A stretch of 54,655 bases of DNA from Enterobacteria phage mEp021. Shown here piece by piece: positions 186 to 22,334 of the stretch (within the stretch, counting starts at the first letter, position 1; each line of letters starts with the position of its first letter). The notes beneath the pieces are model-generated. The model worked only from the letters and a program-made list of their open reading frames with translations, made no database searches and had not been told where the DNA came from. The stretch lies in the sequence record MH706966, one strand, 5' to 3'. Made by a program: the position numbers and the translations under genes.

Positions 186-1400
186 ATGCTGACGGATACG
201 AAATTACGCGCAATAGCAAACAAGCCATATGACGGCCCGAACGAGATAGCAGATCGCGACGGCTTGTCTGCAAGGGTAAGCCCGAAAGGGAAAATAACTT
301 TCCAGTTCAGGTACAGGTTCAACGGTAAGCCTGTAAGGATGAAGATCGGCGATTACGGCAGCATGACGTTAAAAGATGCACGCTACGCGGTTGCAGAATA
401 CAAAGAGCTATTAGCGAAGGGGAAGAACCCAACTGTTTCAGTAAAGCAAGCGATAAGTTTTGAGCGTGGCAAATTAACGATAAGCGCCATTGTGAGCGAC
501 TATTTATCTCTGCCAAACGTTATTAAGCTGGTTGCATATAATGACGTCAGGAGCGCGCTTAAGCGTCATGTTGTCGATAAATTCGGTGAGTATATTGCCG
601 ATGATGTCAGCACGAAACAATGGATGGATATGTTTGGTGAGATCACTGCGGCGGGCCACGCGGTTACGGCTGGCCTAATACTTAAGCGAATGAAGATTGT
701 TGTGAACAGTGCTATCCGGCGCGGGCTAATGACCAGTACGGCGATAAACAACATCAGGGTTATTGACGTTGGCGAAAATTATGCGGTTGGCGAACGTTAT
801 TTATCATGCGATGAAATAGGCCATTTCTGGCGAACGGTGGATGATTCGCAGATCTACCGTCAGAACAAGATAGCATTAAAGCTATTGTTGCTCACCGGGT
901 GCAGGGTGGGAGAATTGCAGAAAATGCGGAGGGAACACCTCGACCTGGATAACGGTGTGTGGACCGTTCCGGCAGCGGTGGCGAAGACAAGGAGTGAAAT
1001 CAGGCGTGGATTATCTGATCTGTCAATAGAAATGCTCAGGGAGGTATTAGCCTCCCATGAGTATGATTATGTGTTCCCGCCAGTGATTAACGGCGGTAAC
1101 AGGCCAGTAAACGCATCAGTGATAAAAGTAGCTGCAATCTTCGTGCGTAAAAGAATGGGCGGTAAGTCGTGGTCCTGTCACGACCTCCGCCGGACGTGCA
1201 GGACGCACCTGTCAGCCATAGGTGTTCCGGTACATATCGCGGAAAAGATTTTAGGCCACTCACTAAGGGGAATTCTGGCGGTGTACGACAAATATGATTA
1301 TCTTGATGAACAAAAGGATGCGCTAAATAAGTTTGCGGATTATGTATTATCTTTGGCTGACGTCAAACCAATCTCATCAAAGAACCGCATTACATCCTGA
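186..1400 (+). CDS. int: Tyrosine recombinase / phage integrase (P4-like, N-terminal arm-binding domain)
   Basis: 404 aa. The N-terminus LTDTKLRAI...GLSARVSPKGKITFQFRYRFNGK is typical of P4-type integrases. The C-terminal catalytic signature is HDLRRT...LGH...Y. Confidence 0.9.
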   Translation: MLTDTKLRAIANKPYDGPNEIADRDGLSARVSPKGKITFQFRYRFNGKPVRMKIGDYGSMTLKDARYAVAEYKELLAKGKNPTVSVKQAISFERGKLTISAIVSDYLSLPNVIKLVAYNDVRSALKRHVVDKFGEYIADDVSTKQWMDMFGEITAAGHAVTAGLILKRMKIVVNSAIRRGLMTSTAINNIRVIDVGENYAVGERYLSCDEIGHFWRTVDDSQIYRQNKIALKLLLLTGCRVGELQKMRREHLDLDNGVWTVPAAVAKTRSEIRRGLSDLSIEMLREVLASHEYDYVFPPVINGGNRPVNASVIKVAAIFVRKRMGGKSWSCHDLRRTCRTHLSAIGVPVHIAEKILGHSLRGILAVYDKYDYLDEQKDALNKFADYVLSLADVKPISSKNRITS

Positions 1401-1570
1401 TAGCGATACATGACGCCACGCCCGGTCCCCAACACATCAACCGGGTCCGGGAATGGAGTTCCGTTTTCCTCCCACTTTTTACGCCATGAATAAAACGTTC
1501 CCCTGCTAATTCCGCCCAGCATACGGCAGATGGCAGGGCGACTAAGAAGAATTGTTGCCGTCTTATCCAT
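1340..1570 (-). CDS. AlpA/excisionase-family small HTH protein (likely Xis/recombination directionality factor)
   Basis: 76 aa with an LSRPAICRMLGGISRGTFYSWRKK helix-turn-helix. It sits adjacent to int, convergent with it, and overlaps the int 3' end by 61 nt. Confidence 0.65.
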   Translation of the reverse strand: MDKTATILLSRPAICRMLGGISRGTFYSWRKKWEENGTPFPDPVDVLGTGRGVMYRYQDVMRFFDEIGLTSAKDNT

Positions 1571-1573
1571 TAT

Positions 1574-2227
1574 TTACCCCCCCGTGTATTCAACGTGTGC
1601 GATACAGCCATCAATAATTGCTTGTGCCATGTTGCGATAATCGCACGAAAAATCATTGTCATGGTTAAAGTCAATCTCTTTTGCCGCGTCTTCACCAATC
1701 ACCTTAGTAGCCAGCGCAAACGCAATTTGTGACAGTGCTTTTTCTTTTGGATCTATCCATCTGCGATATTTAAACCCATTCCATCTGGCTGTTTCTTCGT
1801 GTTTACCATCCTTTCTAACAAAGATCCCTAACTCATCGCCAGTAAAAATATATTTAGCTACGCAGTACATAGGGGCAAATTCCCCTGGGTAAAATTCTAG
1901 CCATACATTTAACGGCGGTCTTTCTCCTGGCTGCCATTCCTCGACTTTCTGCTTATCGCAATCATGGCGCTCATCTTCGATTAATTCATCAATGATTTCA
2001 CTTTCTTTATTCATGCCGTCATCATCCTTATTCGATAAATCATCGTATTTTTCAAATTTCCAGCCTGAAGCCATAGCCGAATAAGTGCTGCCATTGTCAG
2101 CACGGATACCTAATAAATAGTATGTTCCGAAATTATATTCTGTGCGGCATGTTGCCACCTCAAACGATGGGTAACACTCAGGGTTAGCGCGATGACTAAT
2201 CACGCCAATTGCTTTAAGTTTATTCAT
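1574..2227 (-). CDS. Hypothetical protein (217 aa, acidic centre)
   Basis: Long ORF tightly packed at the end of the minus-strand early operon. No motif recognised. Confidence 0.55.
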   Translation of the reverse strand: MNKLKAIGVISHRANPECYPSFEVATCRTEYNFGTYYLLGIRADNGSTYSAMASGWKFEKYDDLSNKDDDGMNKESEIIDELIEDERHDCDKQKVEEWQPGERPPLNVWLEFYPGEFAPMYCVAKYIFTGDELGIFVRKDGKHEETARWNGFKYRRWIDPKEKALSQIAFALATKVIGEDAAKEIDFNHDNDFSCDYRNMAQAIIDGCIAHVEYTGG

Positions 2228-2241
2228 TTGCTTATCCTCAA

Positions 2242-2418
2242 TTACGCCACAGCTACATTGTCAACTTTGATAAAATATTCAGGGTGATTTTCTATTTCGT
2301 GCTGAAAGTGAGCGTGACATAATCGCCAATCACGCGCCTGGTTGTGAAAGTAATAAACGTATTCGCCATCAACCTTATACAAAATGCCTGTAGGTTTAGC
2401 CATGTAATAACTAACCAT
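2242..2418 (-). CDS. Hypothetical small protein (58 aa)
   Basis: Not in the ORF track (under 60 aa). Its ATG overlaps the ninB stop as TAATG, and it fills the gap between two genes. Confidence 0.4.
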   Translation of the reverse strand: MVSYYMAKPTGILYKVDGEYVYYFHNQARDWRLCHAHFQHEIENHPEYFIKVDNVAVA

Positions 2419-2849
2419 TATTGCCCCCAGCGTTTTATAAATTCCTCGTTCAACTTAGTGTCACCAGACCATTGAACATTATGTTCAGCGCCGAACGAGT
2501 AGATCAGTTCGATTAGTTCGCTAAATTCTGCTTTACTCATCCGGCTGGTTGACGTACCCAGCACAACAAAACCTGATTTATCCAGGTTAGGGACAACGCC
2601 ATATTTCTTAAGTCCGGCAGTAAATACCGCCTTCCAGTCTTCCGGCGACAGCTTTTTTCCGTACCAATTAACCTGATCGCTAATGTCGGTTAACAGCGCC
2701 CATAAAAGGCTATTTTGACTAAGCGAGCGGGTTTTCTCCTGGATGGTAATTATCAGCGGGCTTTTGCTATCAGACTGGATCTCTCTTATCTGCCTGATAG
2801 CGTTTTCTTTTACGGCGTCGTTTACTATTTCAAATCTAATTTGCCTCAT
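2418..2849 (-). CDS. ninB: NinB/Orf-family recombination mediator
   Basis: 143 aa. Collinear with my recollection of lambda NinB: ...ITIQEKTRSLSQN..LWA...VVPNL...GFVVLGTSTSRM...EF.ELIELI..FG....V.WS. Confidence 0.8.
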   Translation of the reverse strand: MRQIRFEIVNDAVKENAIRQIREIQSDSKSPLIITIQEKTRSLSQNSLLWALLTDISDQVNWYGKKLSPEDWKAVFTAGLKKYGVVPNLDKSGFVVLGTSTSRMSKAEFSELIELIYSFGAEHNVQWSGDTKLNEEFIKRWGQ

Positions 2850-3573
2850 GGTTAGATAACGCCTCGTTTATTCTATTTGATGCAATTTCGAAATATTTTT
2901 CATCCTTTTCTATGCCGATAAAACGTCGGTTAGTATTAATGCAGGCAACGCCTGTAGTTCCGCTGCCCATAGTAAAATCGAGAACCGTTTCCCCTTCGTT
3001 AGTGTATGTCTTAATTAGGTATTCCATCAGTGCGACAGGCTTTTGTGTTGGGTGTACCTTGCCTTTCTGGTTTGCGTTACTTATCTCTATAATGCTTTTA
3101 GGGTGCTTATCCTTATAAGTCCTTAAATCACCATAATTAATTATGCGGTTTGCCTCCCCAGCAGAATATGTTTTACCCGTCCTTTCCTTTTGCGGAGTTT
3201 TTATTGGGTAATATTTGACAGCGCCTTTAGAAAAAACAACAACATCCTCATGCACCCTATAAGGTTGCCATTTGAGGACTTGCATGTTACCGCCTTTCTT
3301 CTTGTCCCATACCCAGCAATATTTAAACATGCTTATGTTGCTTGCAATTAGTGTTGTAGTGAACGGCTGACTTGCAGTCATCACAATGGCGCAATTCGGC
3401 TTAACTATGCGCTTTAATTGCTCCCACATTGGATTAAGAGGAATGACGGAATCCCATTTGCAGGCCGTTGTGCCGTAAGGCGGATCAGCCATTACCATAT
3501 CAACGCTACCGCCTGGGATAGAGTTCATGACCTCCAGACAATCACCCAACAATAATGTAACATCTTTATTCAT
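2836..3573 (-). CDS. DNA methyltransferase (N6-adenine/N4-cytosine class, DPPY motif)
   Basis: 245 aa with the catalytic motif VMADPPYGT and an HPTQKP motif, followed by a C-terminal SAM-binding FTMGSGTTG. Confidence 0.85.
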   Translation of the reverse strand: MNKDVTLLLGDCLEVMNSIPGGSVDMVMADPPYGTTACKWDSVIPLNPMWEQLKRIVKPNCAIVMTASQPFTTTLIASNISMFKYCWVWDKKKGGNMQVLKWQPYRVHEDVVVFSKGAVKYYPIKTPQKERTGKTYSAGEANRIINYGDLRTYKDKHPKSIIEISNANQKGKVHPTQKPVALMEYLIKTYTNEGETVLDFTMGSGTTGVACINTNRRFIGIEKDEKYFEIASNRINEALSNHEAN

Positions 3574-3582
3574 TATGTTGCC

Positions 3583-3780
3583 TCATGATACACCGTTACT
3601 ATTTTTCCACTGTGACCGCGCATACATGATCGCCCACAGAGAAATAAGCCTTGAGCTAGACATATAATCGTTTTTGAGTTTTTTCATATCAATAATAACA
3701 GGACTATCAGGATCGTCACCTCGCATGTATTCCGCAATCGTGCTCAAGTCTTCCACGGTCAAATCTAATTCCCTATTCAT
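3583..3780 (-). CDS. Hypothetical protein (65 aa)
   Basis: ORF packed in the minus-strand operon. Confidence 0.45.
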   Translation of the reverse strand: MNRELDLTVEDLSTIAEYMRGDDPDSPVIIDMKKLKNDYMSSSRLISLWAIMYARSQWKNSNGVS

Positions 3781-3789
3781 GGTCGCCCC

Positions 3790-3996
3790 TTACACAATCC
3801 GCATTGTGTTTCGTAATTCACCGCGCAACGCCTGCAAAGCGTAATGAATCGGCACAAAAGCACGGTTAAATTTTACGTGCTTATACTTGCGCATTAGTGG
3901 CGGCGTATAAACCATCGTGCCGCAAGGATCGCATGTGAATTTAAAGTGAGATTCGTCAATAAACGTTTCAACTGAATAAAAAATTACCCGTCTCAT
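3790..3996 (-). CDS. Hypothetical protein (68 aa)
   Basis: ORF packed in the operon. Overlaps the upstream gene by 4 nt. Confidence 0.45.
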   Translation of the reverse strand: MRRVIFYSVETFIDESHFKFTCDPCGTMVYTPPLMRKYKHVKFNRAFVPIHYALQALRGELRNTMRIV

Positions 3997-4586
3997 AATT
4001 CCAACCCCGTTTCCACGTTGAGTTTTTCAATCTCAAATACTGGTTTATCAGGAAGCAGCCCGTTATTTTTACGGTATTCGTTCAGGCGGCTGTCAAAGTC
4101 AAACGCCAAATCATTAGCGTGACCGAATCGCCCAGGTTTAAACAGTGAGTAAAAGTTAACCCCGTGCCTATTTGGATCAACGCAAAGCGTTTCATCAATC
4201 ACCATTAGGCGAAGAGTACGAGAAAGATAATTCCACGGGATACCAGTCTCCGCACTAATGTCACGCATACGCTTTTTAACGCTGTAGTCACCAAATAACG
4301 ACGCAACACGCTCACGACGTTCAGCATATAACTGTTTAATACGATAGCCCAGCAGACGGCGGCGGCGTCCAAAACATGTATATACGCGCTCGACGATACC
4401 GTTTTTTATTAAGTGTTTAATTGTCTCAGGAAGTAACCCATCTTTATCATATCCAGCTAATAACCCCGTTTTATTGCGCAACTGGTGCATTGTTGCGATG
4501 CCATCAAGTTCAAGGATATTGATAACTTTTGTTTCAAGTTCAGCGCTCATTGTTTTTAGCCTCGTTTTAAACGCGATAACAGCCAC
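3993..4586 (-). CDS. Hypothetical protein, possible winged-helix DNA binder (197 aa; alternative start 4550)
   Basis: Long ORF immediately downstream of the helicase. Basic, with an HTH-like segment IATMHQLRNKTGLL. Confidence 0.5.
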   Translation of the reverse strand: MAVIAFKTRLKTMSAELETKVINILELDGIATMHQLRNKTGLLAGYDKDGLLPETIKHLIKNGIVERVYTCFGRRRRLLGYRIKQLYAERRERVASLFGDYSVKKRMRDISAETGIPWNYLSRTLRLMVIDETLCVDPNRHGVNFYSLFKPGRFGHANDLAFDFDSRLNEYRKNNGLLPDKPVFEIEKLNVETGLEL

Positions 4587-4629
4587 CAGAAAGCGGTAAA
4601 CTTTCCGGTAAGCCGTTTGCTCATATTGA

Positions 4630-6045
4630 TTAAAAAGATGCGTTATTCTGGTTGTTTCGTTGGTTAAATCTGCCTGTGCGGTGATTCATAGACTGAATAC
4701 ACGCAGCAGCCGCGCGTGCCTGGTCGCATGGTAAAATGTTGCCGTTATCATCAAACCGCTGGTAAACAGTGCCAGATTTACCATGACGGTTTTTCGATAC
4801 AATGATTTCCATATATTCGCGGGCTACAGACTGCTCATCGTAATATCCATCGCGGTAAACCATGATGATCCTGTCAGCATCTTGTTCAAGGTTCCCGGAA
4901 TCGCGCAGATCTGAATTGTTAGGACGCTTGTTCGGTCGCTCCTCAACGCGGCGTGACAACTGCGCCAGCGCTAACACTGGAACGCGCAATTCTTTTGCCA
5001 TCATCTTCAACGACCATGACAATTGCCCAACAGCGAGATCATGACGTTCAGCCTTAGCCAGCTTCATCAACCCGATGTAGTCAATCATTACCATACCCAG
5101 GTTAGGATGTTCCTGTTTCATCCGTTCCGTGGTGGCGCGTATTTCCTCAACCGTTAACTGCGACGCGTCAACGATCCACACATCAAGATTAGCAAGTGCG
5201 CTCATACCCTTGCCGACATGCGCCCACCCCTCATCATCAAGTTTTACCGGATTACGCAGGCAGTCTGTTGATAAATTACCAGCGCCAGCTATAGCGCGTT
5301 CAGTCATCTGATCGAGTGACATTTCAAGCGTGAAGAACAAAACGCCAACCCGCTGATCTTTACTGCCAGGGTAAGGGCGCTCAGCGGCAGCGCGGGCAAT
5401 TGTCAGCGCCAACGCAGATTTACCAGACCCAGGGCGTCCAGCTAAAAGCACCAAATCAGTAGCGTTAATGCCTCCCAACATCTCATCGAGTGGATCTATC
5501 CCTGTTTTGATGTTGTCAGAATTAACACCGCATTCCATGCGCTTGCTTAAAACGTCCGTATATTCCTGTACCGCATCACGCAACAGAACAGGAATGATCT
5601 TATCTTTCGTTACCTTTAATTTTGAATACCGGGAATCAAAATCTTTCATCGTCTCTTTGACGACCTCAAGCGTCCCCGTCTCCAGTTTGTAGCGCATATC
5701 GTCGATGAGTTCCAACATCTGCCGCCGCTGGTGCTCTTCACGTAGTAGCTGTGCGTATCCCTTCAGGTTGGCAGCAGACGGGCACGATCTCGCCGTTTGC
5801 ATTAGCGGTACAAAGTTTTCGTTGCCAATCTCATCGCCAACCAATAACGCGTCAATAAGATTCCTGTTTCTGGCTTGCGCCCTGATAATTTCAAACGCAC
5901 GTTTATACAGCGGAATCGTGAACACTTCAGGATCAAGAGTGGCGAGAACATCTTGCGCGTTAGGAGTAAGGCCGCCCAACAGCAGCCCACCGATAACTGA
6001 CGCCTCACGTTCCTGCCGTAGTGAGTTTATTTGCTCAGTTACCAT
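4630..6045 (-). CDS. Replicative DNA helicase, DnaB family
   Basis: 471 aa. Walker A motif GRPGSGKSALAL, DnaB-type motifs (LFFTLEMS, DYIGLM, LAQLSR...RPNNSDLRDSG.IEQDAD) and a DnaB-like N-terminal domain. Confidence 0.9.
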   Translation of the reverse strand: MVTEQINSLRQEREASVIGGLLLGGLTPNAQDVLATLDPEVFTIPLYKRAFEIIRAQARNRNLIDALLVGDEIGNENFVPLMQTARSCPSAANLKGYAQLLREEHQRRQMLELIDDMRYKLETGTLEVVKETMKDFDSRYSKLKVTKDKIIPVLLRDAVQEYTDVLSKRMECGVNSDNIKTGIDPLDEMLGGINATDLVLLAGRPGSGKSALALTIARAAAERPYPGSKDQRVGVLFFTLEMSLDQMTERAIAGAGNLSTDCLRNPVKLDDEGWAHVGKGMSALANLDVWIVDASQLTVEEIRATTERMKQEHPNLGMVMIDYIGLMKLAKAERHDLAVGQLSWSLKMMAKELRVPVLALAQLSRRVEERPNKRPNNSDLRDSGNLEQDADRIIMVYRDGYYDEQSVAREYMEIIVSKNRHGKSGTVYQRFDDNGNILPCDQARAAAACIQSMNHRTGRFNQRNNQNNASF

Positions 6046-6079
6046 TATGTTATTACCTCCGGTTTACAAAATGGAAAAT

Positions 6080-6586
6080 TCAGGGTAAAGAAATACCGTG
6101 ATTGCTATGAAAGTTATACATTCTTTCAGCTTCTTTTCTTGCTTTTACGGCATCATCAAATGAGTCACCGTAATAAACGTACATTGTTTTCTTTTTCCCA
6201 TCAGACCCCCTTATACCTATTTGCGCCCGCCATTTATGGGTTTTCTTGTTCCACGTAACGCCAACGCATCCGCTAGTATTACTTGATGGCATTGTTTTGT
6301 TTCTGTTATTCTCCTTCCTTGTCACTATCCTTAAGTTTTCGATTCTATCGTCACCAGGTACATGATTTATGTGATCTATTTCCATTCCATCAGGAATAGG
6401 GCCGTTAAACATTTCCCAGATAATGCGGTGACGCCATGTGCAACAAATACCATTAACGCGTATAGTCCAATATCCGCGATAATGTTTACATCCAGCCACG
6501 CTACCTGCTTTTATTTTGTTATTTGCACGGTTACAAGACCAATATAGAACGCCGTCGCTATATGTAAATAAATCATCCCACATCAT
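6080..6586 (-). CDS. HNH homing endonuclease with AP2-type DNA-binding domain
   Basis: HNH_3-like EIDHINHVPGDDRIENLRIVTRKENNRN followed by the AP2-like SGCVGVTWNKKTHKWRAQI. The start was moved to the ATGATG at 6586/6583 so that only 14 nt overlap the upstream gene. Confidence 0.8.
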   Translation of the reverse strand: MMWDDLFTYSDGVLYWSCNRANNKIKAGSVAGCKHYRGYWTIRVNGICCTWRHRIIWEMFNGPIPDGMEIDHINHVPGDDRIENLRIVTRKENNRNKTMPSSNTSGCVGVTWNKKTHKWRAQIGIRGSDGKKKTMYVYYGDSFDDAVKARKEAERMYNFHSNHGISLP

Positions 6587-7703
6587 GACACCCAACCATT
6601 TCAGGCCTATATACAAAGCGACCAATTTCGCCATAATCAGGGCTGTAAATGATAACCGCCGCGCAACGTTGCGATCTCCAGCCTCCATTAGTTGAATAAG
6701 CGTCTTTTCCCGCTAACGTGCCGTGGTGTTCAACTATGCCTATAGATGATTCTGTTACTGATTTATGGTGCAAATGTCCGACATGGACGTAAACATATTT
6801 CGACTTGCCAAAATCCTCACGCCAGTCAGCTACGCAAGCAGACAATAAATTTTCAGGCTTTTTGATAGTGTGCCCGTGGTGGTAAGCAAGGAATGTTTTT
6901 CCGTACTGTGTGTGGTGGACGATGGCAGGGGACACATCAACCGTCACGCGCGGTTCATCTTCGTAAAAAGCCGCCAGCGCCGCACGTAGCCAGATCATTC
7001 CTGACTGGTCGTGATTGCCGGATAACACCTGGATTTCAACATCCTTATGATTTAATAACATCTTCCCTACCGCCCGCCGGACAGACCGGATCGCTACATA
7101 AACAAGTTTTGCGTAGCGACTATCTTGATCAAGAATGTGCCCGCTTGTTGGTGTCACCGGGACCATACCGTCAGAATGAAGTAGATCGCCACCGAGGAGC
7201 AGTACTGCTTTTTCAGACATAGGAGCAGCGCCAACCGCGTAGTCAAAGAAGTCATTCAACACGCGCTCAGCGATCCCAGTATCGTAGCTCTCACCGCATT
7301 CAGCTTTATGAGCAAGTGCCCCGATATGCAGGTCAAACACCGGATAAAGAGCCAGGCTTTTTTGAAAATCAATTTCCGGCACTGGCACTGCCTCCGCGCG
7401 TGGTATTTCTTCCGTGAATGCGTCGCGGGCGGCTTCCATTAGCCTTTCCATTTCATCGCGATCACGGGCTGTTTTAATCCAGCGCATGACCGTATTACCA
7501 GCCTTATCGACAAGAACAGATTCACCAGTAACGCCAAAACCCGGTGCGCGGCGCGTTGATAATAAACCGCGTTTCGCCAGCTTTGCGCCAAGCCGCTCGA
7601 CGTTGCGTTTTGACATGCCATATTTTTCGGCGATCTGTTTATACGTTAAACCGTTGTTATATTCAGCGATCAATTGCTCATCGCTTATCTTTCTTTGCGA
7701 CAT
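6573..7703 (-). CDS. N-terminal HTH fused to a calcineurin-like metallophosphoesterase (replication-module protein)
   Basis: 376 aa. HTH LTYKQIAEKYGMSKRNVERL, then phosphoesterase motifs DLHIG, GGDLLHSDG, GNHD, HHGH and GHLHH. Confidence 0.7.
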   Translation of the reverse strand: MSQRKISDEQLIAEYNNGLTYKQIAEKYGMSKRNVERLGAKLAKRGLLSTRRAPGFGVTGESVLVDKAGNTVMRWIKTARDRDEMERLMEAARDAFTEEIPRAEAVPVPEIDFQKSLALYPVFDLHIGALAHKAECGESYDTGIAERVLNDFFDYAVGAAPMSEKAVLLLGGDLLHSDGMVPVTPTSGHILDQDSRYAKLVYVAIRSVRRAVGKMLLNHKDVEIQVLSGNHDQSGMIWLRAALAAFYEDEPRVTVDVSPAIVHHTQYGKTFLAYHHGHTIKKPENLLSACVADWREDFGKSKYVYVHVGHLHHKSVTESSIGIVEHHGTLAGKDAYSTNGGWRSQRCAAVIIYSPDYGEIGRFVYRPEMVGCHDVG

Positions 7704-7736
7704 AATGTTACTTCCTCATGTTTACGTTTTGTATAT

Positions 7737-14628: not shown

Positions 14629-14642
14629 TGAGGTATTAAATC

Positions 14643-14977: not shown

Positions 14978-14985
14978 GGTTAATC

Positions 14986-15105: not shown

Positions 15106-15377
15106 TGAAAACATGGGATGCAAAGACTGGTGATCTTGTTGTATTGCCTGAATATCGTGATGACCCTGGCCTGGTTGTACTGAATAAGATGTATAACGAT
15201 CTAGATCGCCCGCTAGTGGTTAAATACCTGGACGGAACAATCATAGAACCGCGCTACTTTGATGATATTGAACTGAAGGCCCGCAACGTTCGCGTTAAGC
15301 CGTTCCGGGCTTATGTTGAGGACCACTGGCGGAAATTGTTCGCCGGACTGAATGGGATGTACGGCGTATGGCTATAA
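15105..15377 (+). CDS. Hypothetical protein (90 aa)
   Basis: ORF in the operon. TGATG coupling to the upstream peptide. Confidence 0.5.
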   Translation: MKTWDAKTGDLVVLPEYRDDPGLVVLNKMYNDLDRPLVVKYLDGTIIEPRYFDDIELKARNVRVKPFRAYVEDHWRKLFAGLNGMYGVWL

Positions 15378-15559
15378 AGGAAGTAAAGGTCAAAGACCTG
15401 AAAGGCGGTGAGCGATTAAAGGCGTGGTGGGGTCGCGAGTTTACAGCCGCTGCCTTCATGATCATGCAGGGCGGGGAGGTCGTTATATACGATGAAGACC
15501 TGAAGGAAGTCGGCAGGTGGCATCTTGAGCAATATATCGAGGTGTTAGATGAAAATTAA
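15368..15559 (+). CDS. Hypothetical protein (63 aa)
   Basis: Overlapping, coupled ORF. Confidence 0.45.
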   Translation: MAIKEVKVKDLKGGERLKAWWGREFTAAAFMIMQGGEVVIYDEDLKEVGRWHLEQYIEVLDEN

Positions 15560-15881
15560 ATTCCATAAAGGTTATGATTCGGTCACTAACAAGTTATCGC
15601 TATTTATTGAGTTCGAGCGCCGGATCGTGGTTGTTCCTTATTCTCGGCGCTTTAATGATGCGGCAGGGCGGCGGCAATTCGCGTTAGACATGTTGTTACG
15701 TGGCTGCGGCCTTATGCGCCCGCTATCTGATTTGAAACGGATGATGCCGGGATCGTTCGGTCAGATTGATGAAATAGAAATAAGCCCGGAAGAACTGAAG
15801 CGGGAGCGTGATTTATTCCTTTCAAGCGAAGGAAACCCGTTTAATTCAGAAACAGAAATGAAATGGCATCACCCACTATAA
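15549..15881 (+). CDS. Hypothetical protein (110 aa)
   Basis: Overlapping, coupled ORF. Confidence 0.45.
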   Translation: MKIKFHKGYDSVTNKLSLFIEFERRIVVVPYSRRFNDAAGRRQFALDMLLRGCGLMRPLSDLKRMMPGSFGQIDEIEISPEELKRERDLFLSSEGNPFNSETEMKWHHPL

Positions 15882-15894
15882 AAGGATAAATATC

Positions 15895-16515
15895 ATGAAC
15901 GACATTAAAACAGCTTATTCACTAGGCAGCGATGGCATGTTAATCACTCGCTACACTGAAGACGCAAGTTTTCATGAAGTGGAAACGAAGGATTATCACG
16001 AAGTATTAAAAGATATGGAAGCTGGCGCGTATGACGCAGATTTGAATCTGGCTTTACAGATTGTTGATATTATGATGGACGCGTCGATCCGCGATTATGT
16101 GTCTTTAAACGCTGAAGAAAAAACGGCTGTGGCTCGTTATGTCTTCTGCCTAACTTTCGTGAAACGAATGGAAGAGGAATATGGGCGCGTGCCAGTGCCG
16201 GAAGAAATTGACCCGCTGGCGTTCGGAAGCGCTGTTATTTTCCCGTTAGATGAAAATCATACTGGTAGCGTTGCGCTGCATTCTATGCGCGGCGTAATGA
16301 AATGCATCTTTGAGGCTAAAGCGCTACAGAAGTGCATTGATGAAGGGCATGACGAAGAAGACGTAAAAGCGATCATGCCGTTGTTTTATGGCGAAATGGT
16401 TGGGAACAACATGCGCGCAAATGATTTAGGTGTGCAGGCTGCCATAACTGTACTTAACGAAGCGCGGAAAATGTCGCAGCCAATGCCGGAACCTGAAAAA
16501 CGTGTACTGCATTAA
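15895..16515 (+). CDS. Hypothetical protein (206 aa)
   Basis: Long ORF in the operon. No motif recognised. Confidence 0.55.
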   Translation: MNDIKTAYSLGSDGMLITRYTEDASFHEVETKDYHEVLKDMEAGAYDADLNLALQIVDIMMDASIRDYVSLNAEEKTAVARYVFCLTFVKRMEEEYGRVPVPEEIDPLAFGSAVIFPLDENHTGSVALHSMRGVMKCIFEAKALQKCIDEGHDEEDVKAIMPLFYGEMVGNNMRANDLGVQAAITVLNEARKMSQPMPEPEKRVLH

Positions 16516-16525
16516 CATCGTGATT

Positions 16526-16561
16526 GCGATCACATAAATATACATTTTGTGTTGTGATCGC
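16526..16561. promoter_or_regulatory. 36-bp palindromic element GCGATCACA-N18-TGTGATCGC enclosing a TACATTTTGTG word
   Basis: Perfect 9-bp arms, each containing GATC. Lies in the 99-nt gap between 16515 and 16615. Confidence 0.4.
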
Positions 16562-16614
16562 ATATCCGTTTTGTAAACTGAAATCAAAAGGTTTACGGCA
16601 CGGAGGAAAACAAG

Positions 16615-16833
16615 ATGGCAAGCGAATTAATGCTTTATTGTGTTGAAGGTGGCGTGGGACATGATGCCTACGTCGCCGGGAAAAGCTATCCAGCAGATGA
16701 AGTGCTTTCTAATATGCACTTCCGGGAAAATGAAAACCAGGTGTCTGTGTGGAAGCGATGCGTTGATGGCATTGAGGTAGTTAGCCTCGAAAGATATTTG
16801 GGTAAATTTGACTACGCATTGATCGAGGCTTAA
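16615..16833 (+). CDS. Hypothetical protein (72 aa)
   Basis: ORF with the RBS GGAGGAAAACAAGATG. Confidence 0.5.
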   Translation: MASELMLYCVEGGVGHDAYVAGKSYPADEVLSNMHFRENENQVSVWKRCVDGIEVVSLERYLGKFDYALIEA

Positions 16834-16835
16834 CT

Positions 16836-16928
16836 ATGGACGAAACATTGCTATTCATGTGCATTTGCTGGGGTTTTATTGCCTTATGCCTGTTTATCAG
16901 GTGGTTTATTGAATACCATATGAGGTGA
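16836..16928 (+). CDS. Small single-TM peptide (30 aa)
   Basis: Not in the track. MDETLLFMCICWGFIALCLFIRWFIEYHMR. Fills the gap between two genes. Confidence 0.3.
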   Translation: MDETLLFMCICWGFIALCLFIRWFIEYHMR

Positions 16929-16931
16929 TAT

Positions 16932-17126
16932 ATGGAACAGAAAACTGATTATAGAATACCTGACAACCTGAAGTTAGTTGGCATTGGTTTTGGTTGTCGT
17001 TTTGTATCTGACGCAAACGGGGCGATTTATTTAGTGCGCATCATTGATGGCGTTCAACATATAAGAAGGCTAGGACTTTACATCAAAGCATTTAGAAGAG
17101 GTTATTTGAAAACTCATGAAATTTAA
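16932..17126 (+). CDS. Hypothetical protein (64 aa)
   Basis: ORF with the RBS GAGGTGA. Confidence 0.45.
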   Translation: MEQKTDYRIPDNLKLVGIGFGCRFVSDANGAIYLVRIIDGVQHIRRLGLYIKAFRRGYLKTHEI

Positions 17127-17319
17127 ACAGTATAAAGAATGGAAGATTCCAGAAGAAGCGACAAAGGCAGCGCCCGGAATTTTTTCGGGCGTTTATTTTT
17201 ATATGGGCGGTAAATGGTATTTCGGCAGCAGGCCGGATCACTATTATCAAGAATTATGCAAATCTCACACATGGGACATTAATGAACGCGTGCAAGGCGG
17301 TGTAATAGACGAGGTTTAA
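17116..17319 (+). CDS. Hypothetical protein (67 aa)
   Basis: Overlapping, coupled ORF. Confidence 0.45.
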   Translation: MKFKQYKEWKIPEEATKAAPGIFSGVYFYMGGKWYFGSRPDHYYQELCKSHTWDINERVQGGVIDEV

Positions 17320-17320
17320 A

Positions 17321-17557
17321 ATGATTAATGGTTTTTTAAGCTGGTTAAGAGTGTGGTTTTTTGCCACGCTTTTCGTTTTTTTGGCGTTCAGCGGTGTCAT
17401 TGTCATATTTACGCTGGCGATGATGTTCATTACATGGTCAGTACCTGAATTTAACAATCTTGGAAGTATTTTTGCTGTCGCCCGCGCCATGTTTGCTTGT
17501 AGCGCATTTGTTGGTTTTTGTTGGAGTGTTTCGCCTGATTGGGATGATGAATGGTGA
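17321..17557 (+). CDS. Membrane protein (78 aa, 2-3 TM segments)
   Basis: Hydrophobic throughout (FFATLFVFLAFSGVIVIFTLAMMFI...). Confidence 0.5.
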   Translation: MINGFLSWLRVWFFATLFVFLAFSGVIVIFTLAMMFITWSVPEFNNLGSIFAVARAMFACSAFVGFCWSVSPDWDDEW

Positions 17558-17795
17558 TCCTATGGCCTTGTTCAATATGTCAGAACTGCAATTCAACGCC
17601 GTAAAAGCTGCCGCCCGCGCTGCACTTTCTGCTTGCAAAGCGGAGGTAGAGAAAAACGGCTACAGCGATAAAGCCACGCGGCTGATATTAGAAAAGCATT
17701 ATCGCAAGGTCGCCCCACTAATCAGCATTGAGCGCTTTGTGTGGTTGGTGGGGTATTTAAACAACCGTTGGGGGACGGAACAAGATTATTTCTAA
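17544..17795 (+). CDS. Hypothetical protein (about 83 aa; start 17544, 17547 or 17562)
   Basis: The track ORF 17460-17795 was trimmed to the first in-frame ATG near the upstream stop. Confidence 0.45.
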   Translation: MMNGDPMALFNMSELQFNAVKAAARAALSACKAEVEKNGYSDKATRLILEKHYRKVAPLISIERFVWLVGYLNNRWGTEQDYF

Positions 17796-17804
17796 GGGGG
17801 CGTA

Positions 17805-18344
17805 ATGAAAAATGATTTTGGAGGCAGCCACACTCCTAAGGAAATTAAAGATCTATGGCAGACGCCTAAACCAGTTTTCAGAGGAATGGACCGCGAATTT
17901 GAATTTGTCGCTGACGTGGCGGCAAACAAGGAAAATGCGCTAGTTCCTCGGTATATAACCGAAGAAATGGACACGTTGCATTATCCGTGGGGAGCTGTGG
18001 CAATGCCTGGTGAGTATGTCTGGCTTAATCCGCCATATTCTAAACCGGGGCCATTCGTTGAGAAGGCGGCATTAGAACATCAACGAAATCACATTGGCTG
18101 TGTAATGCTGTTGCCCGCTGACATTTCTGTTAGCTGGTTTATGAACGGCGTGGATACGGCAAACGAATGCCGATTAATCACGCGCGGGCGGCTGGCGTTT
18201 ATCAATGCTGCGACTGGTAAGCCAGTAAGCGGAAACAATAAAGGGAGCTTGTTTTTGATCTGGCATCCACGGTGCAGACATGAATGTATTTTTACACACA
18301 TAACACGTAAAGAGCTATACGCAAGAGGTGCAGATAATGACTAG
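17805..18344 (+). CDS. Phage Dam-type DNA N6-adenine methyltransferase
   Basis: 179 aa. WQTPKPVF...FVADVAA...NALVPRY and the catalytic LNPPYS are characteristic of the small phage Dam family. Confidence 0.8.
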   Translation: MKNDFGGSHTPKEIKDLWQTPKPVFRGMDREFEFVADVAANKENALVPRYITEEMDTLHYPWGAVAMPGEYVWLNPPYSKPGPFVEKAALEHQRNHIGCVMLLPADISVSWFMNGVDTANECRLITRGRLAFINAATGKPVSGNNKGSLFLIWHPRCRHECIFTHITRKELYARGADND

Positions 18345-18834
18345 TGCAGCAGATTTACTACGAATCGCAGCGGAAACAATTGAGCAAAGAGGTAAACAAA
18401 ACGGCTACGACAGAAAAGAGGAAAAATCAGCGCCAAAAATAGCCACTATATACAACGCTAAGAAGGGCGCAAATTTAACCCCACTTGATGTATGGGATCT
18501 GATGATTTGTCTTAAGGAGGCGCGTTTAGAGGCTATTTTGGTTAATGGCAGCGATCCCACTGACACTTTGGTTGACCTAATCAGCTACAGCGCACTAAAA
18601 GCTGAGCAAATATTGAATGATCTGGATGAAGAGTTAAAGAAAAATCAGTTCACTGCCGCCAATATTAATGATGGAATAATAAATGACGCAGCAATAACAA
18701 GCTGTAAGGGATTGCCGCCTTCAATGCTTAAACCTCAGTGTGGCTGTATTTCAAATCGGCTTGATTTGAGTTTTGACAGATCTGAAGCTATTCGCGACAA
18801 GAGGTATGACCCAAATGAAAAAGGTGACAATTGA
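18337..18834 (+). CDS. Conserved phage protein (165 aa)
   Basis: RBS GAGGTG. The N-terminus AADLLRIAAETIEQRGKQNGY...DVWDLMICLKEARL recurs in phage early regions as I recall. Function unknown. Confidence 0.5.
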   Translation: MTSAADLLRIAAETIEQRGKQNGYDRKEEKSAPKIATIYNAKKGANLTPLDVWDLMICLKEARLEAILVNGSDPTDTLVDLISYSALKAEQILNDLDEELKKNQFTAANINDGIINDAAITSCKGLPPSMLKPQCGCISNRLDLSFDRSEAIRDKRYDPNEKGDN

Positions 18835-19318
18835 CAGGTTATTGGCCTGCGTTTATGTCGCCGTTTTCGTGATCATCAACCTAATTGTTAACCATTGCGG
18901 CCCGTGGGTGATTCCTATCACTACGGTAGCCGCTGTGTGTGTCAATATGATGATCCGCGACTTCCTGTTATATGACGGCGGTATCAAGTGGTCGGCGACA
19001 ACATGCGCCGCCGCTGGCGCAATCACTGTGCTGATAAATTACGACGCCGGAATGGTAGCGATCGCGTCATTTGTTGCGGTTGTTTCCGGTGCACTTATTT
19101 CTGGCGGCGTTTACCGGGTTTTACCTGGTGACTTTGATTCAAAACGATGGCCTGCAAATATAGCGTCAGCAATAGGCGATGCGTTGATTTTCCCTACGCT
19201 ATCGTTTATGGCATTCATGCCGGAAATATCAGCAATGCAATTCATATCCAAAATGGCGGCGGTAACGGTGATCACTATCATCATGCGCCGCTATTTTACG
19301 TTTGAGGGTAGAAAATGA
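18815..19318 (+). CDS. Polytopic inner-membrane protein, possibly VUT/YhhQ-like (7-deazapurine precursor transporter family)
   Basis: 167 aa with 4-5 TM segments. ASFVAVVSGALISGGVYRVL...KRWPANIASAIGDALIFPTLSFMAF resembles my memory of the E. coli YhhQ C-terminal half. The family assignment is weak. Confidence 0.5.
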   Translation: MKKVTIDRLLACVYVAVFVIINLIVNHCGPWVIPITTVAAVCVNMMIRDFLLYDGGIKWSATTCAAAGAITVLINYDAGMVAIASFVAVVSGALISGGVYRVLPGDFDSKRWPANIASAIGDALIFPTLSFMAFMPEISAMQFISKMAAVTVITIIMRRYFTFEGRK

Positions 19319-20073
19319 GCAGGGGTAAACATTGGTTTAATAATTGGCTTAGAAATTGGGTCGTTTGGTCGTTGTACGACGGCAGCGGGTACGCCGTCAA
19401 AGATTGGGCGGAAGCAGGATATAAGTGCTATTGCTTCAACTATGACGGCGCAAATCACGGCGATTATGAAGGCGTTAAAATCATTCATCCAAATATTGAA
19501 TACGTTAACGTATGGATTGACAGTCACTTCCTGGTGATGTTCTCGCCTGAACTGTCAGTTTACCCAGATCCTGATATTATCCTGGGCTTCCCGCCGTGCG
19601 ACGATCTCGCCGTGTCTGGCGCTCGCTGGTTCGCTGATAAACGGAAAAAAGATCCTGACTTCCAGGTGAAGGCGGCGAATAGCGCAAAACTGGTAGAAAA
19701 ACTGGCGGATATGCACAACGTGCCGTGGATGGTGGAAAATCCGGTGGGAGCACTGTCAACGCTATGGCGCAAACCTGATTTTATTTTCAACCCTTGCGCT
19801 TACGGTGGCTACCTGCCGGAAGACGACAAACATCCTGCTTTCCCTGATGTTTACCCTGCGCGCGACGCGTATACAAAGAAAACTTGCATATGGTGCGGCA
19901 ACGGATTCAAACAGCCGCTTTTTAGACCTGTAGATCTTAACTCTGGCGATAACCCTGGGTGGGCGAAAACAGGAGGCAGGACGAAACGAACAAAGATGAT
20001 ACGCTCACTAACTCCGCGCGGCTTTGCCCGTGCTGTATTCATGGCTAACCATGACCGCGTTTTACCGGACTGA
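19315..20073 (+). CDS. Compact C5-cytosine-methyltransferase-like protein
   Basis: 252 aa. Motif I-like SLYDGSGYA, motif IV-like GFPPCDDLAVSGA, motif VI-like MVENPVG and motif X-like LTPRGFARAVF. No obvious target-recognition domain. Confidence 0.6.
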   Translation: MSRGKHWFNNWLRNWVVWSLYDGSGYAVKDWAEAGYKCYCFNYDGANHGDYEGVKIIHPNIEYVNVWIDSHFLVMFSPELSVYPDPDIILGFPPCDDLAVSGARWFADKRKKDPDFQVKAANSAKLVEKLADMHNVPWMVENPVGALSTLWRKPDFIFNPCAYGGYLPEDDKHPAFPDVYPARDAYTKKTCIWCGNGFKQPLFRPVDLNSGDNPGWAKTGGRTKRTKMIRSLTPRGFARAVFMANHDRVLPD

Positions 20074-20128
20074 AATTTACAAAATGGCGTCATTGCGTGA
20101 TGTGGATCACATAATGGCGCTATTCACC

Positions 20129-20156
20129 TTGTTCTGATGTATCCATTTTGTATACT
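20129..20156 (+). promoter_or_regulatory. Candidate promoter (TTGTTC-16-TATACT) overlapping a CCATTTTGTATA word
   Basis: Read in the 159-nt gap after 20073. It would start transcription just upstream of the third nut-like site. Confidence 0.35.
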
Positions 20157-20170
20157 TCAAACAAGCAAAA

Positions 20171-20204
20171 TGCTCTTTAAAAATCCGGCAGCGCTGAAAT
20201 GCGT
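20171..20204 (+). promoter_or_regulatory. Third nut-like site (boxA TGCTCTTTAAAAA, 7-nt spacer, boxB GCGCUGAAAUGCGU)
   Basis: boxA matches the rrn boxA at 12/13. The 17-mer GCTCTTTAAAAATCCGG is identical to the nutR-like site on the other strand. boxB shares the CGCUG..AA..GCG pattern. Confidence 0.45.
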
Positions 20205-20232
20205 AGAAATCACCTGAAAAGGAGAGAGCATT

Positions 20233-20409
20233 ATGCCTTTTAATAATTACCAATGGCATGACGACTATGAACGAGAAAGCGTCATGCGTGCAATGTGCAA
20301 TGTATGCAGCACGAAGAAAGGAGACTGCAACGAGTGCAACGAATGTTTAGATCATTGGCTAAGGGCCGGACACGCCGAAAGGCTGAACGAAACAGAAAAT
20401 CAAAAATAA
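20233..20409 (+). CDS. Small Cys-rich protein (58 aa)
   Basis: Not in the track. RBS AGGAGAG. MPFNNYQWHDDYERESVMRAMCNVCSTKKGDCNECNECLDHW... Confidence 0.4.
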   Translation: MPFNNYQWHDDYERESVMRAMCNVCSTKKGDCNECNECLDHWLRAGHAERLNETENQK

Positions 20410-20423
20410 TCGGGGTGATTTTT

Positions 20424-21029
20424 ATGCAGAACCCTAAAAAACCAATACGACGCCGTTGCAAATGCTGCGGCGTTTTTTTTGAGCCTAAATATCACAATCA
20501 AACGTGGTGCAGTGATGAATGTCTGGAAGAACTGAAGTTTGACCAGCTATGCCGCGACCGAGAAAAGGCTATGAAGGCTATGGAACGGAAGAAACGCCGC
20601 GACAGCCAGCGTGAGGAACGCAACCGGAAACGTAAACAGTTAAATCCGCGCAGCTACTGGATTAAACAGGCGCAAAACGTGTTTAACGCATATATTCGCG
20701 AACGTGACGCAGGACAGCCGTGTATATCTTGCGGGACTTATTATTACGAACAATGCGGCGCTGATGCTGGACACTGGCGCACAGTAGCGGCAGCCGGACA
20801 CCTTCGCTTTAACGAGGATAACGTAAACCTACAATGCCGACATTGCAATCAGGTATTAGACGGCAATGTAGAGTTATACAGAATAAATTTAATAAAAAAA
20901 ATAGGATTAGAAAGGGTGGAGGCATTAGAAAATAATAACGAGACTCACAAATGGACGATAGAAGAATGTAAGGAAATCATAAAAGTCTATCAGGCTAAAT
21001 TGGACGCCTTAAGGAGAAAGGCGGCATGA
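20424..21029 (+). CDS. ninG: NinG/Rap-family recombination endonuclease
   Basis: Trimmed to MQNPKKPIRRRCKCCG... PRSYWIKQAQNVFNAYIRERDAGQPCISCGT...GHWRTVAAAGHLRFNEDNVNLQCRHCN matches my recollection of lambda NinG closely. Confidence 0.8.
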   Translation: MQNPKKPIRRRCKCCGVFFEPKYHNQTWCSDECLEELKFDQLCRDREKAMKAMERKKRRDSQREERNRKRKQLNPRSYWIKQAQNVFNAYIRERDAGQPCISCGTYYYEQCGADAGHWRTVAAAGHLRFNEDNVNLQCRHCNQVLDGNVELYRINLIKKIGLERVEALENNNETHKWTIEECKEIIKVYQAKLDALRRKAA

Positions 21030-21433
21030 ATGAATATTCTTTTAGCCTGCCTTACCCGCCATCGAACAATCGCTATTACCGACATTCTCGCGGTTTTCAC
21101 TATATTAGCAAAGTGGGGAAGGAATACAGGGAACAAGTAAGAGACATCATCGAGCTATTAAATTTAAACATCAACCTATCTTGCCGACTGGCAATAACTA
21201 TTCATGCCGCGCCGCCTGATAACCGGATCAGAGATCTGGATAATATCCCAAAATGCCTTTTTGATAGCCTTACTTACGCCGGATTCTGGACCGACGACGG
21301 ACAAATCGATTCTATAAAAATTGTTCGCTGCCGGAAGGTGAAAGGCGGGCGATTGTTTATTAAGGTGCGCGAGCGCGGCGACCTGTTACCGGATATTGGC
21401 GAATACGAAACTAATATATGGGGTGAGAAATGA
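21026..21433 (+). CDS. rusA: RusA-family Holliday junction resolvase
   Basis: 135 aa. LPYPPSNNRYYRH...RDLDNIPKCLFDSLTYAGFWTDDGQI. Confidence 0.85.
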   Translation: MNEYSFSLPYPPSNNRYYRHSRGFHYISKVGKEYREQVRDIIELLNLNINLSCRLAITIHAAPPDNRIRDLDNIPKCLFDSLTYAGFWTDDGQIDSIKIVRCRKVKGGRLFIKVRERGDLLPDIGEYETNIWGEK

Positions 21434-21612
21434 AAAACGAAATTAAAGATCTGCAAATAGATATTCAGCGCGACGAGCTTGATTTAGCTACAGTCAGGCA
21501 AATCCAGGCTTTCCACATGAGAGAATTGCTTGCGCTGAAAGAGCTTGAAAGAAAGTTGGTCCAGTCAATATCTGATCGCAAAAGACTGGTTGCGCGTTAC
21601 GGGGGTAAATAA
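21430..21612 (+). CDS. Hypothetical coiled-coil protein (60 aa)
   Basis: Coupled ORF between rusA and Q. Confidence 0.45.
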   Translation: MKNEIKDLQIDIQRDELDLATVRQIQAFHMRELLALKELERKLVQSISDRKRLVARYGGK

Positions 21613-22334
21613 TGAATTTGGAATCTATTCTTAAATTCCATTTCCCAAAGTCACCGCGTTTGTCAGATGAAAGCCGTGGAACATCACCTGATGCACTTAA
21701 TACTACTGATGCACTAACCGCCGCAGGTATGGCGCAATCTCGCGTAGAGCTTGGATATAGCGCTTTTTTAGGGAAGATGGAACTATCACAAGCCGAAAAA
21801 CATAAGGCCGTAGTTTTGCTTATAGAGCGTTTAAAGGCTATGGCAAAAGATTATAAATACGTTATGGAACTGGACGAGGCACAACGCAATGATCTCATTA
21901 TTCTTGTTGCCGTTTTTGCGTTTCGGGATTATTGCCAGAGTGCCGCGACGGAAAAAACTTGCATGGAGTGCGGCGGATATAAATTTACGTTTGACGAATA
22001 CGGTGAAAAACACCTTTGTAAAAAATGCAAGGGGCATGGGACAGTTCGCAATCATTGTAAACAATGCAAGGGCCGTGGCGAAGTACCGGACAAAGCAGCC
22101 AGCGAAGCGACGGAAATGCCAGTATTCAAAACGTGCCAGCATTGCGGCGGGCGCGGTTACTCGCGTTTCCCAGTAGATCTTGTTCGGCAGGCGGTTAATC
22201 AGCTTGTTTTCCCTGTAAGCCGATCAACATGGTGGAAGAAATACAGGGTTTTCTATGAAGACGCCATAGTGGAGCTATTCAAAGAAGAATCTCGCGCGGA
22301 AAGCGAAATCAAACGAGTGACACGGGGTGAATAA
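21612..22334 (+). CDS. Q: Late-gene antiterminator Q (Zn-finger type, phage 82/21-like)
   Basis: 240 aa immediately after rusA. DnaJ-like CxxCxGxG repeats (CKKCKGHG, CKQCKGRG, CQHCGGRG), as in one Q family. Confidence 0.65.
   Translation: MNLESILKFHFPKSPRLSDESRGTSPDALNTTDALTAAGMAQSRVELGYSAFLGKMELSQAEKHKAVVLLIERLKAMAKDYKYVMELDEAQRNDLIILVAVFAFRDYCQSAATEKTCMECGGYKFTFDEYGEKHLCKKCKGHGTVRNHCKQCKGRGEVPDKAASEATEMPVFKTCQHCGGRGYSRFPVDLVRQAVNQLVFPVSRSTWWKKYRVFYEDAIVELFKEESRAESEIKRVTRGE

Follow-up and report, generated by a model that had tools for sequence, protein, structure and literature searches.

The closest described relatives of the DNA examined here are the phages of the mEpimmI group. The DNA is a stretch of 54,655 nucleotides recorded as Enterobacteria phage mEp021 (MH706966; hereafter the window), and this analysis concerns its early genes, which are arranged in mirror image to those of phage lambda. 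The group comprises 48 genomes of one immunity type with a 'conserved genome architecture', i.e. the type phage mEp021, mEp515, mEp010, mEp013, mEp044, mEp554 and 42 related phage and prophage genomes (Negrete-Mendez et al., 2025; PMC11893012). Their siphovirus morphology and their dependence on Nus factors are known from the literature. Integration is at ydaM (dgcM), abgT or mppA, depending on the integrase type. Crosses with lambda gave no viable recombinants according to the authors, and in human faecal samples the phages reportedly are as frequent as lambdoid phages. The cI-type protein is the immunity repressor; for mEp021 this function of Rep021 was shown experimentally, and Rep021 repressors across the members share 95.95% similarity. 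Together with Nus factors, Gp17 antiterminates at three nut sites, of which nutL and nutR1 lie upstream of the repressor gene and of gp17, respectively, and nutR2 lies downstream of a methylase gene (PMC11893012). The word 'inversion' does not occur in that paper.

The window is linearised at the attachment site and is without host flanks. Against window positions 1-24000 mEp515 was 98.2% identical at the nucleotide level with 89% of the length covered, and both the mEp515 record and the window start at position 1 of their match. Phages mEp554, mEp010 and mEp044 were 90-91% identical to the window. Each of these four matched in a single place and on one strand. A GenBank fragment of mEp021 (1450 bp) was 100% identical to 16919-18368. 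The near-identity to mEp515 and the exact mEp021 fragment assigned the window to the mEpimmI group; by its sequence it is the genome of a mEp021-like temperate coliphage. The phages, the gene map, the repressor and the three antitermination (nut) sites are already published. Only the comparison of marker order with P22, ES18 and lambda is added here. It leads to a best explanation to which we give a probability of about 0.7: a mEpimmI-type phage with an early block mirrored by an ancient inversion, in which Q is fed by the N operon.

Early gene order compared with lambda, P22 and ES18

Protein families were assigned by Pfam and PHROGs searches of the open reading frames (ORFs) of the window. 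The following genes carry the comparison.

186-1400, plus strand: tyrosine integrase int (Arm-DNA-bind_3 and Phage_integrase), at the att end, transcribed inward, outside the mirrored block
1340-1570, minus strand: helix-turn-helix (HTH) DNA-binding protein of 76 amino acids (Pfam HTH_23, 29.5 bits; phrog_4745), last gene of the leftward operon
2418-2849, minus strand: NinB (PF05772, E = 1.5e-46), distal marker of the mirrored block
2836-3573, minus strand: N6/N4 methylase (Pfam/PHROGs)
4630-6045, minus strand: DnaB helicase (Pfam/PHROGs)
9601-10608, minus strand: O-like replication initiator (HTH_36 and several replication-initiator PHROGs)
10615-10860, minus strand: winged HTH (wHTH) protein of 81 amino acids, first leftward gene, resembling the N-terminal domain of replication initiators
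11167-11814, plus strand: cI-type repressor of the Rep021 type (HTH_3 and Peptidase_S24)
12318-12608, plus strand: gp17, N-like antiterminator of 96 amino acids (phrog_271, N-like)
12758-13399, plus strand: Erf (Pfam/PHROGs)
13399-13809, plus strand: SSB (Pfam/PHROGs)
20074-20232, plus strand: putative right junction interval of the block, holding two TACAAAATGG sites, a weak promoter-like element and nutR2
20233-20409, plus strand: NinF-like protein of 58 amino acids (41% over 34 amino acids to ES18 gp67, pairwise E = 2e-7)
20424-21029, plus strand: NinG (Pfam, E = 3e-65)
21026-21433, plus strand: RusA (Pfam)
between rusA and Q, plus strand: ORF of 60 amino acids (ORF map)
21612-22334, plus strand: Q (PF03589)

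Lambdoid hallmarks were predicted from the sequence, i.e. a cI-type repressor between two early promoters and genes for N-type and Q-type antitermination. The minus-strand gene series was uninterrupted from 10860 down to 1340, and all genes rightward from 11167 on were on the plus strand, through the lysis and virion genes. In the composition profile the GC skew flipped sign at about 11 kb, in agreement with the strand switch. An earlier, sequence-only reading had described an operon divergent from cI with wHTH, O, helicase, methylase and ninB running toward int, and a cI-side strand with N, erf, ssb, ninG, rusA, Q, lysis and structural genes. Both descriptions were borne out by the ORF map and the family searches. 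The nin cluster is split across the strands, as had also been stated; its plus-strand part, however, begins not with ninG but one gene earlier, at the NinF-like gene.

The marker order in P22 is erf-c2-18-12-ninB / ninG-23, that in the window NinB-DnaB-O-cI-Erf / NinG-Q. Five markers were on the strand opposite to their P22 counterparts: Erf (53% identity over 208 amino acids to P22 Erf), cI (40% over 203 amino acids to c2), the C-terminus of the O-like protein (36% to gene 18), DnaB (57% over 453 amino acids to gene 12) and NinB (51%). NinG (49%) and Q (34% to gene 23) were on the same strand. The comparison with ES18 gave the same picture, with NinB (51%), c2 (40-57%) and ssb inverted and the NinF-like, NinG, Q and lysis genes on the same strand. 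In lambda NinB (51%) and cI (32%) were inverted, and NinG (52%) and Q (35%) were on the same strand. Across the three phages NinG was 49-52% and Q 34-38% identical, always on the same strand. Instead of the canonical lambdoid map order, the window has the block from Erf to NinB reversed in order and in strand. That the early-gene geometry is mirrored relative to lambda thus agrees with marker order and strand in all three comparisons. The window ORFs after ssb had no match in P22, ES18, lambda or SPN3UB, so that only the order N...erf(-ssb) is shared; a continuation as in ES18, erf-ssb-endonuclease-abc2, was rejected for this reason.

More distant phages had the canonical order as well. In a tblastx comparison with SPN3UB the genes for int, NinG, Q, endolysin and Rz and those from portal to tail were collinear and on the same strand, the latter with 40-70% identity over 29.0-51.5 kb; no similarity was detected across window 1.4-20.4 kb. 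The capsid was 62-63% identical to those of ES18, SPN3UB, Oslo and CobraSix. Relatives of O-DnaB (40-49% identity) were found in prophages of Citrobacter, Shimwellia, Enterobacter and Raoultella and in phage BUCT708. At these six outgroup loci (five enterobacterial prophages and one phage) the lambda order was present wherever the context was examined: int and repressor were on one strand, with O-DnaB pointing at a Q-like gene, at lysozyme or at head genes.

Every member of the family examined keeps the mirrored geometry, i.e. 6 phages, about 35 E. coli prophages and 42 IMG/VR contigs. The same strand layout was present in mEp515, in mEp010 (left end only), in MagusPhagus (about 80-85% identical), in the FAH prophage beside dgcM and in the LSU61 prophage, which is at another site and has a different int type. 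Of 5,426 complete E. coli genomes 37 had any match, and about 35 of these were prophages. The larger matches were in one same-strand place from about 0.1-2.2 kb to 22.4 kb, and the single multi-place case inspected (FAH) had the same order. The IMG/VR contigs were retrieved via NinB. In the 42 of mEpimmI type SSB, Erf, Gp17 and cI shared a strand, and the opposite one carried wHTH, O, DnaB, NinB and the HTH gene; int was convergent in all contigs that reached it. Other NinB relatives (45-63% identity) were not of mEpimmI type and there NinG, where present, follows NinB on the same strand. The layout is not peculiar to this one prophage; it is the fixed architecture of a published family, and any inversion must therefore predate the diversification of the family. 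The sequence-only reading had named as speaking against it that many unrelated lambdoid phages share this order. The mirror order did not turn up outside this single tight family, and lambda, P22, ES18, SPN3UB and the six O-DnaB loci are canonical.

Control regions, nut sites and the predicted circuit

The control elements around the repressor gene and ahead of ninG are:

11001-10985 (boxA and spacer) and 10982-10969 (boxB hairpin), minus strand: nutL, within the leftward control region 10965-11077
11077-11048, minus strand: leftward promoter-like site CTGACA-18-AATGAT (consensus match), the weaker one, facing nutL
11820-11837, both strands: bidirectional terminator-like hairpin after cI (terminator scan)
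11938-11966, plus strand: rightward early promoter-like site TTGACT-17-TATATT (consensus match), strong, facing gp17
12225-12241 (boxA) and 12245-12261 (boxB), plus strand: nutR1, upstream of gp17
20172-20188 (boxA and spacer) and 20191-20204 (hairpin), plus strand: nutR2, downstream of the gene for a methylase of 252 amino acids

The 17-mer GCTCTTTAAAAATCCGG occurred exactly at 10985-11001 (minus strand) and 20172-20188 (plus strand) and with three mismatches at 12225-12241 (plus strand), i.e. 3 matches compared with 0.19 expected. Each consists of a boxA-like element and spacer, with a short hairpin a few bases on. The positions of all three boxA-hairpin units agree with the published nutL, nutR1 and nutR2. 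The duplicated 17-mer that had been noticed in two nut-like sites therefore is the boxA and spacer of nutL and nutR2. At nutR2 it was unchanged in mEp515, MagusPhagus and the FAH and LSU61 prophages while adjoining bases varied; at nutL it was unchanged in three of these four and had one mismatch in mEp515. Both elements are kept even in members where the identity of the flanks has dropped to about 80-85%. At 12011-12028, about 45 nucleotides past the rightward promoter, there is a fourth boxA-like element, GCACTTTAAAAAATCAGG. Its versions in other members have two mismatches to the 17-mer, and no obvious hairpin lies behind it.

The repressor was 92-98% identical in 41 mEpimmI-type IMG/VR contigs. 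In most members the wHTH protein encoded by the first leftward gene was only 31-38% identical. It was considered as an immunity-specific Cro and rejected, because its domain is initiator-like and it is poorly conserved while the repressor is nearly constant. The translation of 12318-12608 has Arg17, 19, 20, 21 and 24; the conserved arginine positions published for Gp17 include Arg17, 19, 20 and 24 (PMC11893012). A search of 5.8 billion proteins returned Gp17 homologues confined to the mEpimmI group (52 clusters, the full-length ones at least 63% identical). Distant relatives of Gp17 with another layout were thus not found. Gp17 and the nut sites are also reportedly the subject of work by Valencia-Toxqui et al. 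from 2023 (Arch Virol 168:92).

From these elements the following circuit may be proposed. A cI-type repressor would be located between a leftward and a rightward promoter. The leftward transcript would carry nutL, express the replication genes and end at the HTH gene, antisense to int. The rightward transcript would carry nutR1 and make Gp17 first, then Erf, SSB and methylases. It would then pass nutR2 and come to a terminator at the beginning of ninG, which would have to be read through to reach Q; Q in turn would activate lysis and virion genes. At 20454-20472, just within ninG, a terminator-like hairpin and T run are indeed present, and because they follow nutR2 the latter is positioned like a nut site ahead of a terminator. 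In this circuit the N/recombination operon and not the replication operon would feed Q. Neither early operon could make int, which is convergent with the leftward one and would need its own promoter.

How nutR2 came to its place bears on the history of the block. It is possible, though doubtful, that nutR2 is a duplicated nutL, perhaps copied with promoter or operator, that kept ninF-ninG-rusA-Q under N control after the rearrangement. The site falls exactly in the junction interval 20074-20232 and is followed by the terminator-like hairpin; just upstream are the conserved TACAAAATGG sites at 20078 (plus) and 20143 (minus) and a conserved element, TTGTTN-16-TATACT, whose spacer sequence varies. 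With nutL it has the exact 17-mer and 32 of 41 nucleotides (78%) in common, compared with three differences in 17 for nutR1. This likeness, however, stops at the edges of the functional elements, and the boxB hairpins differ. Both sites are constant where flanks are 80-85% identical, and selection for the same boxA would give the same picture. Functional constraint therefore explains a likeness limited to the 41-nucleotide element as well as a duplication does. Further, nutL is in mid-block; an inversion would not bring it to the junction and a separate duplication would be needed. The upstream promoter-like site scored only 8/12, which is under the scan threshold. Equally tentative is the combination of one inversion of a P22/ES18-type early region with 20074-20232 as a compensatory third control region that re-couples Q to N-dependent transcription.

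The promoter-like element itself, TTGTTC-16-TATACT at 20129-20156, is directly upstream of nutR2. In five members the hexamers and the spacer length are constant, and the first seven spacer bases are different in every one. The element may be a third early promoter/operator. The 10-mer TACARAATGG was over-represented in the window (9 occurrences, 0.27 expected). It is located at 6065, 11084, 11927, 20078, 20143 (minus), 30125, 37675 (minus, with a partner at 37647), 42049 (minus) and 51094. Among these are sites ahead of dnaB, within the leftward control region, directly next to the -35 element of the rightward early promoter and, twice, just before nutR2. Some of these sites pair as inverted copies. 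The five sites in the early region are in the same places in mEp515, MagusPhagus, FAH and LSU61, with varying adjoining bases. The 10-mer probably is the binding site of some regulator or a promoter element.

Origin of the mirrored layout

As the most economical origin of the layout we infer a single inversion of the whole block in a lambdoid ancestor that had an ES18-like virion module. The signature of an inversion is the set of five reversed markers (Erf, c2, the C-terminus of gene 18, gene 12 and NinB) beside the same-strand NinF-like, NinG, Q and lysis genes. It would have become fixed ahead of the diversification of the group, and ordinary mosaic exchange of genes would have come after it. 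Judged by gene content, the left junction would be at about 1400-2418, between int and NinB, and the right one at 20074-20232, between the last methylase gene and ninF. The left junction can be placed no finer because the genes between int and NinB are group-specific; the right junction is within 20074-20232 because the NinF-like ORF is on the same strand as ES18 gp67.

The sequence-only reading had suggested an inversion or module swap of the whole immunity and early block and, in addition, that a copy of the promoter-proximal nut region was retained before ninG and Q. The mirrored geometry relative to P22, ES18 and lambda argues for the former; the junctions without repeats and the lack of a close uninverted relative argue against it. 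The latter is doubtful: nutL lies in mid-block and a simple inversion would not carry it to the block end. A recombination of nutL with nutR2, the only long inverted repeat pair, was dropped as the source of the layout, because undoing such an inversion leaves a map that needs more steps from the canonical one.

Several points weigh against an inversion. Neither inverted or direct repeats nor scars were found at either junction. Searches with 1-8000, 12000-19400 and 19300-22400 gave no multi-gene match to outgroup phages at the DNA level; the DNA-level phage matches were to single genes, i.e. P22 erf, a T1-like phosphoesterase and a T1-like methylase. A search for relatives with the uninverted order returned distant canonical outgroups and no close one, and the inversion event itself was not observed. 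With marker identities of 34-57%, several independent exchanges would be conceivable. The block is a mosaic, and its phosphoesterase and one of its methylases have their nearest relatives in T1-like phages. The strand of int, opposite to that in lambda and P22, adds at least one further difference, so one inversion alone is insufficient to turn the lambda map into the mEpimmI map. In SPN3UB the early order is canonical, yet int is convergent with, and overlaps, a small excision gene; going by that genome, a convergent int/xis module is an existing variant in a canonical phage. No cro or cII homologue was found in the early region. Without these, and with an initiator-like first leftward gene, the regulatory parallel with lambda is incomplete. 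Promoters and terminators were called from consensus matches alone. Finally, the energies of the nut hairpins were indistinguishable from those of shuffled sequence and therefore were not used as evidence.

Could the block have been assembled piecemeal, by several independent exchanges among lambdoid, ES18-like and T1-like phages, with a P22-like order arising from functional constraint within operons? We consider this unlikely. Five markers over 10 kb hold the exact reversed order and strands of P22, and the adjacent NinF-like, NinG and Q genes do not. Mosaicism is strong, with the T1-like phosphoesterase and methylase and allele swaps inside the group; SPN3UB shares the flanks and nothing in the block; and junction scars were not found, all of which would fit such an assembly. 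On the other hand, divergence from P22 is similar within the block (36-57%) and outside (34-49%), and a module exchange between flanking homologies leaves the orientation as it is, so that an inversion step would still be required. That the mirror order is ancestral and the lambda order derived, or that it reflects an assembly or orientation artefact, is highly improbable. The direction of change cannot be read from marker order by itself, but the canonical order is common to lambda, P22, ES18, SPN3UB and all six O-DnaB outgroup loci, and an artefact can be ruled out, since the mirror layout recurs in independent phage genomes, in complete chromosomes and in metagenome contigs. Nothing relevant turned up when the literature was searched for earlier descriptions of an inverted early region in lambdoid phages.

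Neighbouring genes and relation to known phages

The int gene and the small HTH gene converge and their 3' ends overlap by 61 nucleotides. The int of the window is 30% identical over 400 amino acids to that of SPN3UB, on the same strand and collinear. It is of the type present in mEp515; a related FAH prophage adjoins dgcM. All int types in the mEpimmI group are on the plus strand. The gene convergent with int had been called xis-like. Its convergence was confirmed, but the family assignment was not: the protein matched generic HTH/DNA-binding families and no excisionase family in Pfam and PHROGs. Yet its allele tracks int, with 92-94% identity where int is 89-96% identical and 43-46% where int is 47-50% identical. 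This co-variation fits an integrase-specific excision factor and makes the HTH protein a candidate directionality factor. The LSU61 prophage, with its third int type, lacks an annotated gene at this position. A minus-strand promoter-like site at 1366-1339 (10/12) is directed antisense into int.

The remaining genes of the early region are:

1574-2418, minus strand: two group-specific genes (217 and 58 amino acids), distal to ninB
3993-4586, minus strand: MarR-like protein (Pfam/PHROGs)
6080-6688, minus strand: HNH endonuclease (Pfam/PHROGs)
6573-7703, minus strand: metallophosphoesterase of 376 amino acids (Pfam/PHROGs)
7737-9224, minus strand: Zn-ribbon repeat, endonuclease-like protein (endonuclease PHROGs)
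within 12758-20073, plus strand: about twenty small genes, body of the rightward operon (ORF map)
13839-14363, plus strand: endonuclease (Pfam/PHROGs)
17805-18344, plus strand: Dam (Pfam/PHROGs)
19315-20073, plus strand: methylase of 252 amino acids (Pfam/PHROGs)

The two genes at 1574-2418 had no match in Pfam or PHROGs, and homologues of the 217-amino-acid protein were found in mEpimmI phages only. Within the O-like gene, iterons are located at 10204-10314, i.e. direct repeats of about 20-23 nucleotides (GGTTGCTCTCTGCCACTACC and variants); judging from their position they probably are the replication origin, as in lambda O. The gene at 7737-9224 consists of six tandem 183-nucleotide repeats coding for Zn-ribbon units. 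The mEp515 version is shorter, and thus the repeat copy number differs between members.

Swapped within the group are the N-terminal domain of the O-like protein (its C-terminal 170 amino acids are conserved), the int type, NinB, the capsid and homing endonucleases. In contig IMGVR_UViG_2737471838_000004 the NinB allele is 53% identical to the usual one and is followed by an extra HNH endonuclease gene, with flanks of 94-97% identity; on this sequence pattern it is a local allele replacement beside a homing endonuclease. The major capsid gene (32906-33958) is 99% identical to that of mEp013, 97% to that of MagusPhagus and 75-78% to those of mEp515, mEp554, mEp010 and mEp044. That the capsid is closest to mEp013 but the early region to mEp515 indicates recombination inside the family. 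The metallophosphoesterase has 61-67% protein identity to those of T1-like virulent phages (Drexlerviridae), and the 252-amino-acid methylase gene 65-72% DNA identity. Both being closest to T1-like phages, this points to gene exchange between the temperate family and virulent siphoviruses.

If the inversion is true, the family amounts to a natural experiment in rewiring the lambda circuit, in which replication transcription runs antisense into int. The lambda logic would then tolerate a swap of the early operon that delivers Q and the one that approaches int, and the inversion would account for the need of a third nut site in this family. For annotation it matters that the published names 'nutL' and 'nutR' do not map onto those of lambda. 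The layout is also relevant for studies of the timing of lysis and lysogeny in mEp021.

With the T1-like virulent phages the window shares single genes, but neither a regulatory circuit nor an integration module nor gene order. The virion module is shared with the ES18-type siphoviruses ES18, SPN3UB, Oslo and CobraSix, the early regions of which are canonical; the early genes of SPN3UB (recET, cI, cro, cII, O, DnaC) are unrelated to those of the window. The likeness to lambda, P22 and ES18 extends to the same gene families with identities of 32-57%, to N- and Q-type antitermination and to local order: recombination genes-N-nut-promoter-cI-promoter-nut-O (with the origin inside the gene)-helicase-NinB on one side and NinF-NinG-Q-lysis on the other. 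Compared with these three phages, the recombination genes and everything from there to NinB have the reverse orientation with respect to int/att and to NinF, Q and the late genes. Q therefore comes after the N operon, and the replication operon is directed at int. The mEpimmI phages have a third nut ahead of ninF. Their nutL precedes the first leftward gene, whereas the canonical lambdoid counterpart follows the cro gene, and their int is on the strand opposite to that of lambda and P22. No new kind of system is revealed. Between the window and the other mEpimmI members differences are allelic or at the level of insertions and deletions, nothing substantive; gene order, repressor, Gp17 arginines, the three nut sites and the position of int are all alike.

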